A DNA stretch of 9,008 nt from a virus (lineage: Duplodnaviria; Heunggongvirae; Uroviricota; Caudoviricetes): IMG/VR virus record IMGVR_UViG_2703718855_000006, one strand, 5' to 3'. Below, piece by piece: positions 2,359 through 7,865 of the stretch. Both the position numbers and the translations under genes were made by a program. The first letter of the stretch is position 1; each line of letters opens with the position of its first letter. The notes under the pieces were generated by a model that did not search any database, was not told the origin of the DNA, and saw only the letters and a list, made by a program, of their open reading frames with translations.

Positions 2359-3300
2359 TCACCCCCTGAATCCTGCCGGGATCTGGCTGTAGTCCACGTT
2401 GTCGTAACTGGATTTGAAGTACGGGTCTTCGCGTTTTTCGGTGTACGTGCTGACGGACGGTGATAAGCGCAGGGAAAGCTCATCCCATTTTTCCCGCAAC
2501 TTCGACGGGCTGAGCACGTTACGGCACCAGAACGGATCGCGGCTGACGCGGCTGTACATCTCGCAGATTTGTTTGTGAGTACGACCATCCTGCACACACA
2601 TCAGGCGAATTTCGTTTGCCCAGGCTGTCCAGTTCGGTTCTTTGGGACGAACCACCTCGCCGTCACATTCGGCGGCTTGCTCGTACAGGGCGATGATTTT
2701 TTTCCAGAGCCACTGTGCGCAGGTCAAATCATCCTGCGTTCCCCACTGGCGCTTTTTAGGGCTGAATACAACCGCATCAGGATGGCGAGTTAAAAAATCC
2801 TGTTCATCCGTCTGCGTGTCCGGTTGCGAAGCGTCCGGACGAGAAGGTTTTTTATCTGACGGATCATGTTTTGATTTTACTGACGGATCCCCGCCAGATT
2901 CTGACGGATGAAAACCCGCTTTTTTGCCAGATTTCGACGCATCAAATTTTGACGGGTCAGATTTTGATGCGTCAGATTTTGACGGGTCAGAATCTGACAG
3001 TTGAGAAAATGCCGCTGCCTGAAGCTTCGCAACGTTAAGCTGATAAACATTCGACGCATTGCGGTTACCCTGGCGACGCGCCTTACGCGTTAACCAGCCT
3101 TCTGCTTCCAGCCGTGCGATAGCCGTCCTGACGGTACTCATCCCCGCGCCAATCTGACGGGCAATGGTTTCAATTGATGGCCAGCACACACCTTCGTCAT
3201 TACTGAAATCAGCCAGGCGGGCCATAATTGCCACGCTGGATAATTTCATGCCTGATGCAGCGCAACCATCCCATACATAGCCGGTTAATTTAGTGCTCAT
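2359..3300 (-). CDS. Phage replication initiator (lambda O-like); apparently the intact form of what is a pseudogene (oweE) in K-12 e14
   Basis: 313 aa. ATG at 3300 with an AGAGG Shine-Dalgarno, 9 nt after the YmfM-like stop. N-terminal winged-helix-like domain (LADFSNDEGVCWPSIETIARQIGAGMSTVRTAIARLEAEGWLTRK), a central low-complexity pentapeptide linker (SDPSK SDASK SDPSK FDASK) encoded by 15-bp tandem repeats, then a C-terminal domain. Confidence 0.7.
   Translation of the reverse strand: MSTKLTGYVWDGCAASGMKLSSVAIMARLADFSNDEGVCWPSIETIARQIGAGMSTVRTAIARLEAEGWLTRKARRQGNRNASNVYQLNVAKLQAAAFSQLSDSDPSKSDASKSDPSKFDASKSGKKAGFHPSESGGDPSVKSKHDPSDKKPSRPDASQPDTQTDEQDFLTRHPDAVVFSPKKRQWGTQDDLTCAQWLWKKIIALYEQAAECDGEVVRPKEPNWTAWANEIRLMCVQDGRTHKQICEMYSRVSRDPFWCRNVLSPSKLREKWDELSLRLSPSVSTYTEKREDPYFKSSYDNVDYSQIPAGFRG
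2852..3002. repeat. Iteron-like array (putative phage replication origin) inside the O-like gene
   Basis: Five contiguous 15-bp units at 2928-3002 (CAGATTTCGACGCAT, CAAATTTTGACGGGT, CAGATTTTGATGCGT, CAGATTTTGACGGGT, CAGAATCTGACAGTT), plus related copies at 2852-2866, 2873-2889 and 2895-2909. A perfect 16-bp direct repeat ATTTTGACGGGTCAGA occurs at 2946-2961 and 2976-2991. Confidence 0.6.
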
Positions 3301-4531: not shown

Positions 4532-5158
4532 ATGGAAACGGTTGGTCAGCGTATAAAAGCTCTGAGAAGAGTTACCGGAACGTCCCAGAAAGAATTGGGT
4601 AAATTTTGTGGAGTAAGCGACGTTGCTGTGGGGTACTGGGAGAAAGACATCAATACCCCTGGTGGGGAGGCACTTTCGAAATTAGCGAAGTTCTTCAATA
4701 CGTCAATAGATTACATTCTTTATGGTGCTGAGTTTGAAGGCAAACTCGTCACAAACATGCGCAGAGTTCCTGTAATATCGTGGGTTCAGGCTGGGCAGTT
4801 TACTGAGTGCAGGGCAGCAGAAGTGTTTAGTGAAGTGGACAAGTGGGTAGATACATCATTAAAGATTGGTGATAACTCATTTGCATTAGAGGTTAAAGGT
4901 GACTCCATGACTAACCCTAATGGCCTCCCAACAATACCAGAAGGCGCAACAGTGATTGTAGATCCAGATGCAGAACCTCGTCATGGAAAAATAGTCATCG
5001 CTCGACTTGATGGAACAAACGAAGCTACAGTAAAAAAATTAGTCATCGATGGCCCTCAAAAGTTTTTAGTGCCATTAAATCCTCGGTATCCCAACATCCC
5101 TATCAATGGTAATTGCCTTATCATTGGTGTAGTCAAAGGAGTTCAATACGAACTCTAA
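4532..5158 (+). CDS. Phage repressor, CI/LexA type (XRE-family HTH plus S24 peptidase autocleavage domain)
   Basis: 208 aa. N-terminal HTH (QRIKALRRVTGTSQKELGKFCGVSDVAVGYWEKDINTPGGEALSKLAKFF). C-terminal S24 domain with catalytic Ser in GDSM and Lys in TVKKL. Candidate Ala-Gly cleavage site in WVQAGQF. Occupies the cohE position but is shorter than K-12 CohE (224 aa), suggesting a different immunity type. Confidence 0.9.
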   Translation: METVGQRIKALRRVTGTSQKELGKFCGVSDVAVGYWEKDINTPGGEALSKLAKFFNTSIDYILYGAEFEGKLVTNMRRVPVISWVQAGQFTECRAAEVFSEVDKWVDTSLKIGDNSFALEVKGDSMTNPNGLPTIPEGATVIVDPDAEPRHGKIVIARLDGTNEATVKKLVIDGPQKFLVPLNPRYPNIPINGNCLIIGVVKGVQYEL

Positions 5159-5180: not shown

Positions 5181-5213
5181 CACCAAACTAAGAAAAGTTT
5201 GGTGTTTTCTCTT
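5181..5213 (+). terminator. Rho-independent terminator downstream of the repressor gene
   Basis: CACCAAACT aagaaa AGTTTGGTG followed by TTTTCTCTT: a perfect 9-bp stem, 6-nt loop and T-rich tail, 23 nt after the repressor stop. Confidence 0.7.
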
Positions 5214-5241
5214 GCCATAATAACTAAGTTAAGTTAGATTT
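5212..5241 (+). promoter_or_regulatory. Putative pL-like promoter with a third operator-like site
   Basis: TTGCCA (5212-5217), 17-bp spacer, TAGATT (5235-5240). The spacer contains CTAAGTTAAGTTAG (5224-5237), closely similar to the operator CTAAGTTTTATTAG next to cro. The promoter is oriented toward the 68-aa gene and xis/int. Confidence 0.35.
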
Positions 5242-5320
5242 TATATCAAAGATAACGAACAGGCAGGACGCCCACGAAGTAGCCGCCTGGGGCATATGAA
5301 GTCCAGGATGATTCGTTAGC

Positions 5321-5347
5321 AACAAAAAAGCGCCCTACAGGACGCTT
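5321..5347 (-). terminator. Rho-independent terminator for minus-strand transcription
   Basis: Minus strand reads AAGCGtCCTgtAGGgCGCTT followed by TTTTTTGTT. It lies downstream (minus sense) of the 144-aa gene and beyond the antisense of the 68-aa gene. Confidence 0.6.
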
Positions 5348-5405
5348 AGCTCTTTAACAATCTGGTCCCCATCAACAAGTAACTGATAACTTGAGGAGGT
5401 GTGAA

Positions 5406-5612
5406 ATGCACAAAACAGAACCAAAAATCGTCGCACCCGGATACACAAATGAGGAAATTTACGAGTGGATGGCAAAGAAGCTGGCAGCTATAAACCAGCT
5501 TCGTGAAGTGCTGTCTTATCGACAGGAAACAATAGACTCCTTAAAAAAACTGGATCAGGAAATCACGGTTTTATCACAGGATGTTACTTTAGATATTGTG
5601 CAGACAAATTAG
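5406..5612 (+). CDS. Hypothetical small acidic coiled-coil protein (68 aa); accessory gene
   Basis: ATG at 5406 with a strong GAGGAGGTG Shine-Dalgarno 4-5 nt upstream (the ORF track began at an upstream TTG). MHKTEPKIVAPGYTNEEIYEWMAKKLAAINQLREVLSYRQETIDSLKKLDQEITVLSQDVTLDIVQTN. Its 3' end overlaps the convergent 144-aa gene by 29 nt. Confidence 0.5.
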   Translation: MHKTEPKIVAPGYTNEEIYEWMAKKLAAINQLREVLSYRQETIDSLKKLDQEITVLSQDVTLDIVQTN

Positions 5613-6018
5613 GATCCCATTCATTTTCGTCAAAATCATCAAAGTGATGAATTTGTGATCTCCAGTCTCGATAATCTAAAAATTTCTGGGCGGTTACGCT
5701 TATTTTATCAAGCGTGAGTTCATCCTGAATTGAAAGAAGAAGTTCATCAAATTTCATCTCATTAATCTGTTTTGGCATCCAGTGATGCTTCATCAGAATA
5801 AGGTGAACCAGAGCTTTTTTCCCATTCAACTGATTATAGGGAGTGCCGAATTTCTTCCGGTGCTCATGTAAGACAAGGTCCAGAAGAGTAAGTAATGTTG
5901 CCCTTGATTCAACTTTGCTTATTTCGACTGATGACACTACCCCACTGATTTCAATGCCCCGATACTTTCCAACATTTTCACAGTGGGATTTGTACAGCGT
6001 ATAGATATTACCGGACAT
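5584..6018 (-). CDS. Hypothetical protein (144 aa); AT-rich accessory gene with a C-terminal R-x4-H motif (possible HEPN-like fold)
   Basis: ATG at 6018 with an AAGGA Shine-Dalgarno about 6 nt upstream. Roughly 30% GC on a sampled line versus 50% or more in the core phage genes. Motif RSQIHH near the C-terminus. Same slot and orientation as ymfI in e14, but a different size (144 vs 113 aa). Confidence 0.6.
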   Translation of the reverse strand: MSGNIYTLYKSHCENVGKYRGIEISGVVSSVEISKVESRATLLTLLDLVLHEHRKKFGTPYNQLNGKKALVHLILMKHHWMPKQINEMKFDELLLSIQDELTLDKISVTAQKFLDYRDWRSQIHHFDDFDENEWDPNLSAQYLK

Positions 6019-6034
6019 TTCTTTTCCTTTTGCG

Positions 6035-6085
6035 TTGTTGGGGATAACCAGATTAACCGAATCCTTGTTGTTGGGGAATAACCAG
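6035..6085. repeat. Two direct repeats in the upstream region of the 144-aa gene (candidate regulator binding sites)
   Basis: TTGTTGGGGATAACCAG (6035-6051) and TTGTTGGGGAATAACCAG (6068-6085), 33 bp apart centre to centre (about three helical turns). The reverse complement of the first contains TTATCCCCA, 8/9 to the DnaA-box consensus TTATCCACA. Confidence 0.5.
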
Positions 6086-6305
6086 GTCCACCTCGCCTGA
6101 TGTGGCTAAAAGCAGGCACATAACAGCTAAGTATTTTCAACCAGAGAGAATCCTTAGCGTTGTGGTGAATGCGGCTCAGCGCACGCGGGTTAAGGTTGAG
6201 GCTGACAGTCGACCTTCTGTGGATACCCACCCGTCTGGTGTGCAACCTTCGCCAGGCACCGGGAGGCACCCGGAACCACAACTTTATGCTGTGTGTAGTC
6301 TTGAC

Positions 6306-6349
6306 GGTACCAGTTTGTACCCTTGCTTCCGGCTGGTACCATCCTTTTT
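6306..6349 (+). terminator. Stem-loop with T-tract (candidate plus-strand terminator or RNA 3' end) inside the ORF-poor region upstream of xis
   Basis: GGTACCAG (6306-6313), a 19-nt loop, CTGGTACC (6333-6340), then ATCCTTTTTAC. No T-run on the opposite strand. Confidence 0.45.
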
Positions 6350-6511
6350 ACAAAACAGAGAAGAGCATCACCGGACGACGGGCTCATAACCCAATCCATC
6401 CATGCGGCAGTCATCGCAGGTGTTCTTCTCTGTTTTGTGGAGAAACTAACCGACCTTGCAGGGTCGATATGCAGAGACTGAACAGTTATTGAAGTAATAA
6501 GGTGATCGCAT

Positions 6512-6757
6512 ATGCTTCAAATGTTAACTCTTGAAGAATGGGCTTCTGAAAAATACAGAAGTAATCCTCCAAGCGTTTCCACGTTGCGTCGTTATGCTAA
6601 GCAGAATTTGTTTTGTCCACCGGCAATGAAACAAGGTCGGTTATGGCGAGTGCGTGAGGACGCCGAGTTAGTTGGAGAGCTGGTAACACCAGTAATTAAG
6701 AAAAATGACTCATTACTTTTGCAACGGATTTTGAGTGATGGCAGCCAGACCGCGTAA
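6512..6757 (+). CDS. xis: Excisionase, lambda Xis family (81 aa)
   Basis: MLQMLTLEEWASEKYRSNPPSVSTLRRYAKQNLFCPPAMKQGRLWRV parallels lambda Xis (MYLTLQEWNARQRRPRSLETVRRWVRECRIFPPPVKDGREYLF). AAGGTGAT Shine-Dalgarno upstream. Overlaps the int start by 20 nt; length and overlap match e14 xisE. Confidence 0.85.
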   Translation: MLQMLTLEEWASEKYRSNPPSVSTLRRYAKQNLFCPPAMKQGRLWRVREDAELVGELVTPVIKKNDSLLLQRILSDGSQTA

Positions 6758-7865
6758 GAATAATGTTTCAGTCCCTAACTTATATCCGCTTTATAGCCGA
6801 AAGGTAAATAAAGTCTATTGGCGGTATAAGCATCCAATAACAGGGAAATTCCATGCTTTGGGAACAAACGAAGCTGAAGCTATCGCTATTGCCACTGAAG
6901 CCAATACGCGCCTGGCTGAACAAAGAACCCGGCAGATTCTGGCCATCAGTGACAGGATCGCAACCAGCAAAGGGAAAGCAATCACAACGTCAACTTGGTT
7001 AGATCGCTATCAAGCGATCCAGAATGACAGGCTGAAAAGTGGTGATATAAAGCTCAACACCTACAAGCAGAAAGCCAAACCTGTCTCCTTACTTAGAGAA
7101 CGGGCAGGATTGAAGCTAATTTCAGCTGTTGATGTCCGGGATATTGCACAATTACTTGATGAGTATATTGCCGCTGGGCAACCGAGAATGGCACAAGTAG
7201 TTCGCTCCGTCCTGATTGATGTTTTCAAAGAGGCGCAGCACTACGGAGAAGTACCTCCTGGCTATAACCCTGCATTAGCTACTAAACAGCCAAGAAGAAA
7301 AATTACCCGACAACGGCTGAGCCTCGAAGAATGGAAAAAAATATTCGATATCGCAGATGCCAGCCATCGTTACATGGGAAATGCCATGCTGCTAGCCTTG
7401 GTTACTGGTCAGCGGTTAGGTGATATTTCACGTATGAAATTTAGCGATATTTGGGATGATCATCTTCATGTCGTACAAGAAAAGACAGGGAGCAAAATCG
7501 CAATTCCGCTTTCTCTTCGCCTCAATGCGATTAACTGGAGTTTACGTGATGTAGTAGCTCGCTGCCGTGACTATGCAGTCAGCCCATACTTAGTGCATTT
7601 TTTCCGTTCAACTTCGCAGGCAGAACGTGGAGCACAGGTAAAATCCAATACATTGACGATGAATTTTAGTAAAGCAAGAGATTTAGCAGAAATTAACTGG
7701 GGGGAAGGTTCACCTGCCACATTCCATGAGCAACGATCTTTATCTGAACGCCTTTACAAGGAACAGGGATTAGATACACAAAAACTACTTGGTCACAAAA
7801 CACAGCAACAAACCGATCGTTATCATGATGACCGTGGGAAAGGCTGGAGCAAAGTAGCTTTGTGA
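6738..7865 (+). CDS. int: Tyrosine site-specific integrase (lambda Int family, e14 IntE-like)
   Basis: 375 aa from the ATG at 6738 (the ORF track begins at GTG 6735). N-terminal arm-binding-type domain. Catalytic signature: TGQRLGDI (box I Arg), HEQRSLSERL (H-x-x-R), LLGHKTQQQTDRYHDD (nucleophile Tyr). Confidence 0.92.
   Translation: MAARPRKNNVSVPNLYPLYSRKVNKVYWRYKHPITGKFHALGTNEAEAIAIATEANTRLAEQRTRQILAISDRIATSKGKAITTSTWLDRYQAIQNDRLKSGDIKLNTYKQKAKPVSLLRERAGLKLISAVDVRDIAQLLDEYIAAGQPRMAQVVRSVLIDVFKEAQHYGEVPPGYNPALATKQPRRKITRQRLSLEEWKKIFDIADASHRYMGNAMLLALVTGQRLGDISRMKFSDIWDDHLHVVQEKTGSKIAIPLSLRLNAINWSLRDVVARCRDYAVSPYLVHFFRSTSQAERGAQVKSNTLTMNFSKARDLAEINWGEGSPATFHEQRSLSERLYKEQGLDTQKLLGHKTQQQTDRYHDDRGKGWSKVAL

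Follow-up and report, generated by a model that had tools for sequence, protein, structure and literature searches.

We analysed a stretch of DNA of 9,008 nucleotides (nt) from the IMG/VR virus record IMGVR_UViG_2703718855_000006 (hereafter the window), the source of which is an e14/SfV-like lambdoid prophage of Escherichia coli integrated at icd. Our subject was the interval 6019-6511, directly upstream of xis, which a reading of the sequence alone (hereafter the sequence-only reading) had proposed to hold a non-coding RNA or regulatory element. We found that positions 6156-6349 (plus strand) are an RNA of ~194 nt composed of a pseudoknotted five-helix core, a 20-nt linker and an intrinsic terminator. 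The element is a divergent, unannotated member of a known family of small RNAs (sRNAs), that of STnc100 and PasD, rather than something new in kind; the proposal of a plus-strand RNA is thus supported by fold, family match and covariation. Our favoured reading, to which we assign a probability of about 0.6, is an STnc100/PasD-family sRNA embedded in the operon of the early-left promoter PL in a dicF-like layout, which would also serve as a leaky terminator and processing site before xis-int.

Family membership was established with two covariance models. A scan of Rfam, one of the checks proposed by the sequence-only reading, gave STnc100 (RF02076) as the one relevant match, with the full model (1-206) aligned to 6129-6352 (plus strand) at 31.8 bits; the E-value was 5.6e-4 when the whole window was searched and 3.2e-5 when the search was confined to the 521-nt region. 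Relatives scored 35-41 bits with the same model. The second model, R1, was made from 35 copies having a P2 helix of the CCCCC type, the window's subtype (GCGGC) being left out. R1 matched 6156-6285 over its full length with 61.4 bits (E = 2.8e-15), and scored 55-70 bits for SfV, ST64B, sal3, phiES15, phage P1 and K-12 e14. No other Rfam family gave a significant match to the core or to the two flanking structures described below as element A and hairpin C, a search for tRNA- or tmRNA-like genes found none, and the literature searched for the invariant motifs as text gave no matches. The core, defined from Rfam, model R1 and pair counts, is built as follows.

6159-6282, plus strand: structured core of the STnc100/PasD family
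6159-6167 / 6274-6282, plus strand: closing helix P1
6171-6175 / 6181-6186, plus strand: helix P2, with A6183 bulged
6192-6198 with 6243-6249, plus strand: pseudoknot of AAGGUUG with CAACCUU
6199-6232, plus strand: variable P3 region
6233-6240 / 6250-6257, plus strand: helix P4
6259-6263 / 6269-6273, plus strand: helix P5, with loop AGGCA

Helices P1, P2, P4 and P5 and the invariant motifs GGUGAAU and CACCGGGAGGCACCCGGCACC were all found in the window with one deviation, an A for C at 6274. P5 is the GC hairpin CCGGG-AGGCA-CCCGG singled out by the sequence-only reading; it lies at 6259-6273 and is the invariant signature hairpin of the family. Indeed, every feature named by that reading was present, at or 1-2 nt from where it had been placed, and the GC richness it reported was also found (0.535-0.545 across 6100-6400 vs 0.36-0.47 in the flanks).

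The fold was supported by covariation. IMG/VR was scanned with the hairpin motif and then with the 5' motif, which together gave at least 200 loci; among the matches listed there were 84 distinct cores from the hairpin-motif scan and 78 from the 5'-motif scan. GGUGAAU and CACCGGGAGGCACCCGGCACC are common to at least 80 distinct phage copies and between them nearly everything differs, in a compensatory manner. Pair counts were made for 32 pairs over a MAFFT alignment of 45 diverse copies. Overall 80% of the cells were paired vs 68.6% in shuffles, none of 500 of which reached the observed value, and pairing dropped to 41-49% when the partner was slid by 1-3 columns. P1 was paired in 85.9% of cells and P4 in 79.2%, each with five pairs changed on both sides, whereas P2 was paired in 99.1% with three double changes (CCCCC/GG-GGG, GCGGC/GC-CGC and CUUUC/GA-AAG). 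P5 was invariant across the 45-copy set and covaries in Qin-type copies to CCUGG-AGGCA-CCAGG. The pseudoknot links the stretch just 3' of P2 to the P4 loop, and its partners elsewhere are AAGGCUGG/UCAGCCUU in phiES15 and UGGUUAU/AUAACCA in phage P1. Over 22 unrelated sequence types the longest complementary run of the pseudoknot had a mean of 7.5 nt for cognate partners vs 5.4 +/- 0.24 nt for deranged partners (0/5000). A local hairpin, AAGGUUGA/UCGACCUU, which minimum free energy (MFE) folding prefers over the pseudoknot, was rejected: it was unsupported by phiES15 and ST64B, both of which support the pseudoknot. G-U pairs are frequent, being the commonest pair at one P4 position, and because of such pairs in the core and in the set comprising the terminator and hairpin C we take the plus strand to be the functional strand. 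The single-sequence folding energy was not significant for either strand (z = -1.15 for plus, -1.72 for minus).

The remainder of the interval is divided as follows.

6019-6087, minus strand: upstream/5' region of the 144-residue ECs1072-family gene; carries two direct repeats and lies outside the RNA
6088-6158, plus strand: conserved 5' extension with small hairpins, CCAC..GUGG at 6088-6105 and GCUAAG 6126-6131 / CUUAGC 6153-6158, the latter directly 5' of P1
6283-6302, plus strand: conserved single-stranded linker of 20 nt, UUUAUGCUGUGUGUAGUCUU
6303-6349, plus strand: intrinsic terminator; 11-pair stem 6303-6313 / 6333-6343 with one C.A mismatch, then C and UUUUU at 6345-6349
6350-6438, plus strand: hairpin C; perfect 20-bp duplex 6350-6369 / 6419-6438, directly after the U-tract, with a conserved C-rich interior
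6451-6466, plus strand: small hairpin CGACCU-UGCA-GGGUCG, with four of six pairs changed on both sides among relatives
6472-6511, plus strand: junction to xis, with the xis ribosome-binding site AAGGUGA; yfdP-type homology ends at ~6471

The 8-bp stem and U run that the sequence-only reading took for a terminator or the 3' end of a plus-strand RNA proved to be a covarying intrinsic terminator. Its core stem, GGTACCAG (6306-6313) paired with CTGGTACC (6333-6340), differs in ST64B (GUCGGCGUC..GACGCCGAC), phiES15 (GCCCGC..GCGGGC) and phiNP (GGCGGUACCAG..CUGGUACCGCC), a U run following each stem, and the terminator was paired in 94.5% of cells with four pairs changed on both sides. A simple terminator scan overlooked 6303-6349, the loop being 19 nt vs the allowed 3-8 nt. 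By a strict terminator rule 73 of 111 family copies have a terminator within ~40-70 nt downstream, and several others have TTTCTT tails. The linker sequence is kept in the window, SfV, ST64B, phiES15, phiNP and F1055 despite changes in the adjacent helices. By analogy with the 53-nt form of the sRNA DicF, to the 5' part of which it corresponds in position, it may serve as a seed, as an RNase E site or as both; no complement of at least 9 nt to the linker was found inside the window. Reading of the window and ST64B likewise gave no conserved antiterminator pairing between core and terminator.

Conservation extends beyond the terminator. Hairpin C was paired in 98% of cells with two double changes and has G-U pairs that are workable on the plus strand only, and the terminator and downstream hairpins together were 91.5% paired with 13 pairs doubly changed (0/500 shuffles). 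The block of hairpin C and the small hairpin is found downstream of 24 of 27 window-type cores and is kept upstream of yfdP, recT-like, xis and other genes. Hairpin C is a candidate RNase III site or leader structure of the read-through RNA. Its interior (CGGGCUCAUAACCCAAUC in a long duplex) recurs on the plus strand of another locus (L029, ~10070-10170), directly 5' of a family core at ~10180, and hairpin C may be a reusable processing module.

At its 5' side the conserved extension 6088-6158 is shared with SfV, K-12 and phiES15; by eye, other hairpins of ST64B, phiES15 and phage P1 stand at its place. The direct repeats reported by the sequence-only reading, GTTGTTGGGGATAACCAG (6034-6051) and GTTGTTGGGGAATAACCAG (6067-6085), differ only by one extra A. 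These repeats, listed there among the features of the interval, are no part of the RNA and travel with the minus-strand ECs1072-family gene module. Segment 6019-6087 was present only in phages having the ECs1072-family gene (Kati, SfIV and others), the match of which runs from 6000, whereas in SfV, K-12 e14 and phiES15, which lack the module, homology begins at ~6088. Because 6019-6087 is found only where that gene occurs, we assign it to the upstream region of the gene and not to the RNA. An inverted copy of the repeat is located at 5359-5379 (vs 6034-6054 and 6064-6077) and borders a two-gene insert composed of orf68 and the ECs1072-family gene, the flanking repeat of which is CTGGT(T/C)(A)(T)CCCCA(T)CAACAA(G). 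Such an arrangement suggests a module boundary, a recombination scar or a site for a shared regulator.

The interval 6019-6511 is non-coding. Annotation says otherwise: the Prokaryotic Genome Annotation Pipeline (PGAP) labels 6162-6481 a "frameshifted hypothetical protein", as it does in window-like genomes, and in K-12 the homologous e14 DNA is annotated as a protein gene, ymfH (b1142, 103 residues; positions 2570-2881 of locus L133). That the interval is a frameshifted remnant of ymfH would agree with these labels and with the intact 103-codon K-12 open reading frame (ORF) on the same DNA, and we consider it scarcely credible. The K-12 ORF begins at the GTG of GTGGTGAAT, that is, at the P1 helix, and is open only through the loss of one base in the loop of P5 (GGGAGGCA to GGG-GGCA), a hairpin invariant in the family; CCCGG has also become CCCGA in the same copy. 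The ymfH frame stops after 16-75 codons in ST64B, 118970_sal3, phiES15 and many metagenomic phage copies, breaking at different places, and no alternative frame is kept open across relatives. Substitutions by codon position were 23/20/18 (window vs ST64B) and 21/24/23 (window vs sal3), with indels of 1, 1, 2, 5 and 22 nt that are not multiples of three, whereas the xis-int control for the same prophage pair gave 77/13/14 and zero indels. Pfam and NCBIfam searches of the interval ORFs gave no match, and the conservation seen is accounted for by RNA covariation. We rejected a decayed gene on the grounds of the 1-nt deletion, the unconserved frame and the lack of codon periodicity. The intact ORF of K-12 arose by accident in a mutated RNA copy and does not represent the ancestral state, and ymfH is probably not a real protein gene.

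These results also bear on three statements of the sequence-only reading. That the ORFs of the interval do not look protein-like agrees with the nil codon periodicity and with the indels. The description of the interval as ORF-poor was right in that no ORF is conserved or matches Pfam or NCBIfam; taken mechanically, ORFs of 52-114 residues overlap there in several frames. That reading had also held that an intact ORF in a relative would make the interval a decayed gene. K-12 ymfH is formally such an ORF, but because it stems from a 1-nt deletion and is unconserved elsewhere, it does not refute an RNA.

The genes and control elements that surround the interval are as follows (the first entry lies apart from the others).

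2359-3300, minus strand: replication-initiator-like gene, 313 residues
4234-4434, minus strand: cro-like gene, followed by operator repeats
4532-5158: LexA-type cI repressor gene
within 5186-5247, plus strand: OL-type operator repeats AACTAAG..TTAG; the same repeats also lie between cI and cro
5212-5240, plus strand: PL-like promoter, TTGCCA-17-TAGATT
5255-5318, plus strand: element A, a PL-proximal leader RNA; ACGAACAGGCAGGACGCCCACGAAGUAGCCGCC, hairpin 5286-5290 / 5303-5307, GGAUGAUUCG
5406-5612: ORF of 68 residues
5584-6018, minus strand: ECs1072-family gene, 144 residues, convergent
6512-6757: xis
6735-7865: int

The interval 6019-6511 therefore sits in the early-left operon, with the immunity region on one side and xis-int on the other. 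Genes of the PL operon occupy the corresponding place in lambda. In SfV, SfII, SfIV, ST64B, 118970_sal3, phiES15, phiNP, F1055 and K-12 e14 the element, always in the same orientation, was flanked in every case by the first early-left gene and a cI/DicA-type repressor gene, and a window-like arrangement was found in 17 complete E. coli genomes at 94.5-99.6% identity and at least 80% query coverage. The genes yfdP-yfdT are absent from the window prophage and xis comes directly after the interval. In K-12 ymfH-xisE-intE is handled as a single operon and is a member of the YmfT iModulon, in a list that also has sulA and recN (PMC12133099). Apart from the operon, the replication-initiator-like gene contains, at 2928-2991, a long imperfect palindrome made up of about four iterons of 15 nt (CAGATTTTGACGGGT and variants), which is probably the phage replication origin; a match to the Rfam family mir-5880 was spurious because of these iterons.

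A promoter scan found nothing promoter-like in 5800-6800, which includes the interval. Among non-redundant contexts of the CCCCC type 19 of 41 have a near-consensus promoter, TTGACA-17-TAAATT, with its start at helix P1; none of the 18 GCGGC-type contexts has a promoter there. Because no promoter of its own was found and because of the early-left position, the GCGGC subtype is most simply read as a portion of the PL transcript. Element A follows PL promoters having differing operators (SfV, ST64B, phiNP, F1055, K-12 e14 and metagenomic phages), its hairpin covaries (CCUGG/CCAGG, CCGGU/ACCGG, CCCGG/CCGGG), and for 21 of 24 window-type cores it was found upstream at a distance of no more than 1.1 kb. 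Its place is that of nutL/putL; it has only CGAAC.GGC and AGGAUGA in common with HK022 put, and Rfam and literature searches for element A gave no match. Downstream of element A lie a hairpin (5328-5347) and then an exact rrn-type boxA, GCTCTTTAACAA (5349-5360; chance expectation 0.04), which was found only in phages carrying the orf68/ECs1072 insert. This boxA may be a NusB/NusE-dependent antitermination site on the PL transcript.

Copies of the core also occur in other phage loci. In the Qin prophage of K-12 dicF (76.7 bits with the DicF model) is followed five bases past its U-tract by a family core (2941-3107 of locus L236) which scored 59.6 bits with R1 (E = 5e-16) and 34.1 bits with the Rfam STnc100 model. 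The P1 helix of the Qin core is ~27 bp and begins at the U-tract of the DicF terminator; the core forms the 5' untranslated region (UTR) of dicB (fold z = -4.4). The CCUGG/CCAGG (Qin) subtype is very common in IMG/VR. By reading only, the domain upstream of dicF looks like a degenerate relative of the core having P1, P2, the pseudoknot and P4 and lacking P5; R1 gave 7 bits and the MFE fold differs. The phage P1 core (2499-2628 of locus L005; 70075-70204 of the record) is an unannotated part of the C1-controlled ban operon, with upl on one side and tciA on the other; it has no terminator and is directly upstream of the tciA ribosome-binding site.

Given the operon position and the properties of the family, the most likely role of the window RNA is twofold: it would be an induction-time sRNA, and it would place a leaky terminator and a processing site before xis-int. 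Inactivation of the prophage repressor would derepress PL, and transcription would enter the element. A fraction of the transcripts would terminate at 6349 to give a small RNA of ~190 nt, which RNase E could trim, by cutting in the AU-rich linker, to a form of ~60 nt. If it resembles EcOnc27, PasD and DicF in function, the RNA would target mRNAs in trans with the help of Hfq. The read-through RNA would form hairpin C (6350-6438), a plausible RNase III substrate, and carry xis-int. PL expression, processing, Hfq-dependent action in trans and the existence of targets are what we infer; members of the family are expressed, Hfq-bound sRNAs (PMC8550237, PMC5331693, PMC12711010).

Several observations weigh against this reading. 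Expression is known for other family members only, the Rfam STnc100 score is below the gathering threshold (31.8 vs 47 bits), and PL lies ~900 nt upstream of the core with a convergent gene and the 5328-5347 hairpin in between. A6274 replaces a nearly invariant C, so that the innermost pair of P1, at the P1/P5 junction, is a G.A mismatch, and together with the C.A mismatch of the terminator stem this may mean that the window copy is impaired. A plain base-pairing sRNA would not require so elaborate a core, with its invariance and its pseudoknot, and the Qin and phage P1 cores, situated in 5' UTRs without a terminator, hint at a role in cis. The likeness to DicF is also limited. The Rfam DicF model (RF00039) gave 13.3 bits (E 4.3) at 6290-6344 where the gathering score is 48, and the duplex energy of the window RNA with the ribosome-binding region of ftsZ was equalled by 249 of 500 shuffles, a crude test in which DicF itself was equalled by 32 of 500.

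We weighed the embedded sRNA against other explanations of the same conservation. The core might be a cis-regulatory domain of the early-left transcript and not mainly a trans-acting sRNA, setting the level of transcription beyond 6349, into xis-int here and yfdP, kil or dicB in relatives, by put-like modification of RNA polymerase or by control of termination, processing or stability. We consider this unlikely, while granting it a real share of the probability. The invariance of the junction nucleotides in at least 80 distinct copies while helices and pseudoknot vary is characteristic of RNAs with a conserved binding partner, the core is directly 5' of a terminator in an operon leader, the Qin (dicB) and phage P1 (tciA) cores are terminator-free 5' UTRs, and cores are mostly co-directional with their flanking genes (70 vs 23 upstream, 60 vs 20 downstream). 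However, HK022 putL and putR are unlike the core in sequence and structure and R1 was blank in the HK022 loci, a consistent antiterminator pairing of core with terminator was not found, and many members are stand-alone, with a promoter at P1 and their own terminator, and are discrete Hfq-bound sRNAs. A related and slightly less probable proposal, which we hold as tentative, is that the ~125-nt core is itself the functional RNA domain, binding a conserved host component (RNA polymerase, a ribonuclease or the ribosome) and controlling elongation, termination or processing of phage operon transcripts. The contexts of the core range over the late-region sRNAs STnc100, PasD and EcOnc27, the early-left leader (K-12 "ymfH"), the Qin dicB 5' UTR and the region upstream of phage P1 tciA. 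If the core is such an autonomous domain, it might gate xis-int jointly with element A (5255-5318).

It is doubtful that this copy is an inert relic of a family that is functional elsewhere, namely what was left of a yfdP-type leader when a defective e14-like prophage lost yfdP-yfdT. Homology to yfdP phages does stop at ~6471 with xis directly next, conserved position 6274 has changed from C to A, the terminator stem has its mismatch, and P5 of the K-12 e14 copy carries clear mutations. Set against this, the window copy scores 61 bits with all helices intact, the arrangement is 94.5-99.6% identical in the 17 complete genomes, and xis-int have no other recognisable promoter, which makes the leader their only evident expression route. 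More doubtful still is a stand-alone sRNA gene, made in the lysogen independently of PL from a weak non-consensus promoter in 6088-6150 (e.g. GAGAAT at 6146-6151), in the manner of STnc100, PasD and EcOnc27. The full STnc100 model aligns from 6129, ~30 nt before helix P1, where STnc100 proper starts; 6088-6155 is conserved among the window, SfV, K-12 and phiES15; and family members elsewhere do have promoters. Yet GAGAAT has no -35 element and reads GAGAAC in ST64B, no promoter-like site emerged from the scan and none of the 18 GCGGC-type contexts has one, and in the analogous dicF locus an internal promoter was not found experimentally (bioRxiv 10.1101/2023.04.14.536235).

An embedded sRNA of the STnc100/PasD family has consequences for annotation and for phage biology. 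The protein gene ymfH (b1142) and the PGAP "frameshifted hypothetical protein" pseudogenes of many genomes overlie a structured RNA and not a protein gene. The STnc100/PasD family, which has been studied for its roles in the virulence of enterohaemorrhagic and enteropathogenic E. coli (EHEC and EPEC), now extends to a promoter-less subtype in repressor-controlled early operons and gains a pseudoknotted fold supported by covariation. The xis-int genes of e14-like prophages lie downstream of a terminator and of a probable site of processing, which makes excision control through read-through open to direct test. Four points appear to be new in the searchable literature. One is the subtype embedded in early operons, which scores below the Rfam threshold and carries the label ymfH or pseudogene; the others are the fold with its pseudoknot, the presence of the core in the dicB 5' UTR and the phage P1 ban operon, and the link in architecture to DicF.

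Among known systems, the c4 antisense RNA of phages P1 and P7 (RF01695) is like the window RNA in being embedded in a repressor-controlled operon and cut from its transcript (which in the window would be by processing) and in having a conserved scaffold with variable loops. The c4 model gave no match in the window, and a search of the window for complements of the variable parts, as targets in cis, gave none. The early-right region of ST64B (locus L006, 409-597, minus strand) contains IsrK (64.3 bits) as well as a C4 antisense RNA (79.7 bits), neither of which is present in the window. HK022 put (putL and putR) and the window core are both structured cis-encoded RNAs located 5' of terminators in the early operon leaders of lambdoid phages lacking an N-type protein, and both have pseudoknot-like tertiary pairing. 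However, put is ~70 nt with two stems and directly follows PL, whereas the window core, of ~125 nt, lies ~900 nt from PL and is present in one copy per phage with none in the PR operon. The best local alignment of putL to the window scored 30, less than a chance match of 35 on the opposite strand, and an R1 search of the HK022 loci gave nothing. Membership in put was therefore rejected, the similarity being at chance level in sequence and nil in structure.

The layout of the window RNA matches that of the dicF locus. As in the window, the locus is downstream of a cI/DicA-type repressor gene and a PL-type promoter and upstream of early-left genes (kil/dicB vs xis-int), in a repressor-controlled early-left operon having a Rho-independent terminator to be read through. 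The two loci also share the succession of structured domain, single-stranded stretch, leaky terminator, long duplex beginning at the U-tract and downstream gene, the long duplex of dicF being the extended P1 of the family core. DicF is known as two RNAs processed from the dicBp operon transcript, one of 190 nt, the 5' end of which is generated by RNase III, and one of 53 nt, for which RNase E generates the 5' end; no internal promoter was found (bioRxiv 10.1101/2023.04.14.536235). The longer RNA is about the size of the window RNA (194 nt, 6156-6349). The 3' end of DicF arises by Rho-independent termination or by an RNase III cut 19 nt further on (PMC5069750), and by our coordinates the RNase III 3' end of the resulting 72-nt DicF would fall inside the extended Qin P1 duplex. 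DicF-like sequence in the window lineage is limited to UUGGCGGUAYCAGUUU and the 3' stem, for which SfV and phiNP were matched by 0 of 1000 shuffles and the window, marginally, by 5 of 1000. Given this limited similarity and the 13.3 bits, we rejected filing the window RNA as DicF.

The family to which the RNA belongs remains that of STnc100 (RF02076), EcOnc27/sRNA103 of E. coli O157 and PasD1/PasD2 of EPEC, PasD having been tied to STnc100 only recently (bioRxiv 10.64898/2026.05.13.724894). All have the same fold, with GGUGAAU, a P2 with bulged A, the CACCGGGAGGCACCCGGCACC hairpin and a closing P1. No pseudoknot is seen in the Rfam STnc100 structure line, and the published work used RNAalifold, which predicts none (bioRxiv 10.64898/2026.05.13.724894). 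Unlike STnc100, the window RNA is sub-threshold in Rfam and therefore unannotated, and its P2 differs in a compensatory manner (GCGGC/GC-CGC vs CCCCC/GG-GGG). Stand-alone members of the STnc100 type have a promoter of their own, which the window copy lacks; they lie in the late region near Q, stx, nanS-p and lysis genes, whereas the window RNA is in a repressor-controlled early-left leader and is accompanied by two more conserved leader structures, element A and hairpin C. Across these differences the STnc100 family and the window RNA have the same order of core, linker and intrinsic terminator, a length of ~190-210 nt and the same type of host, the lambdoid prophages of enterobacteria.

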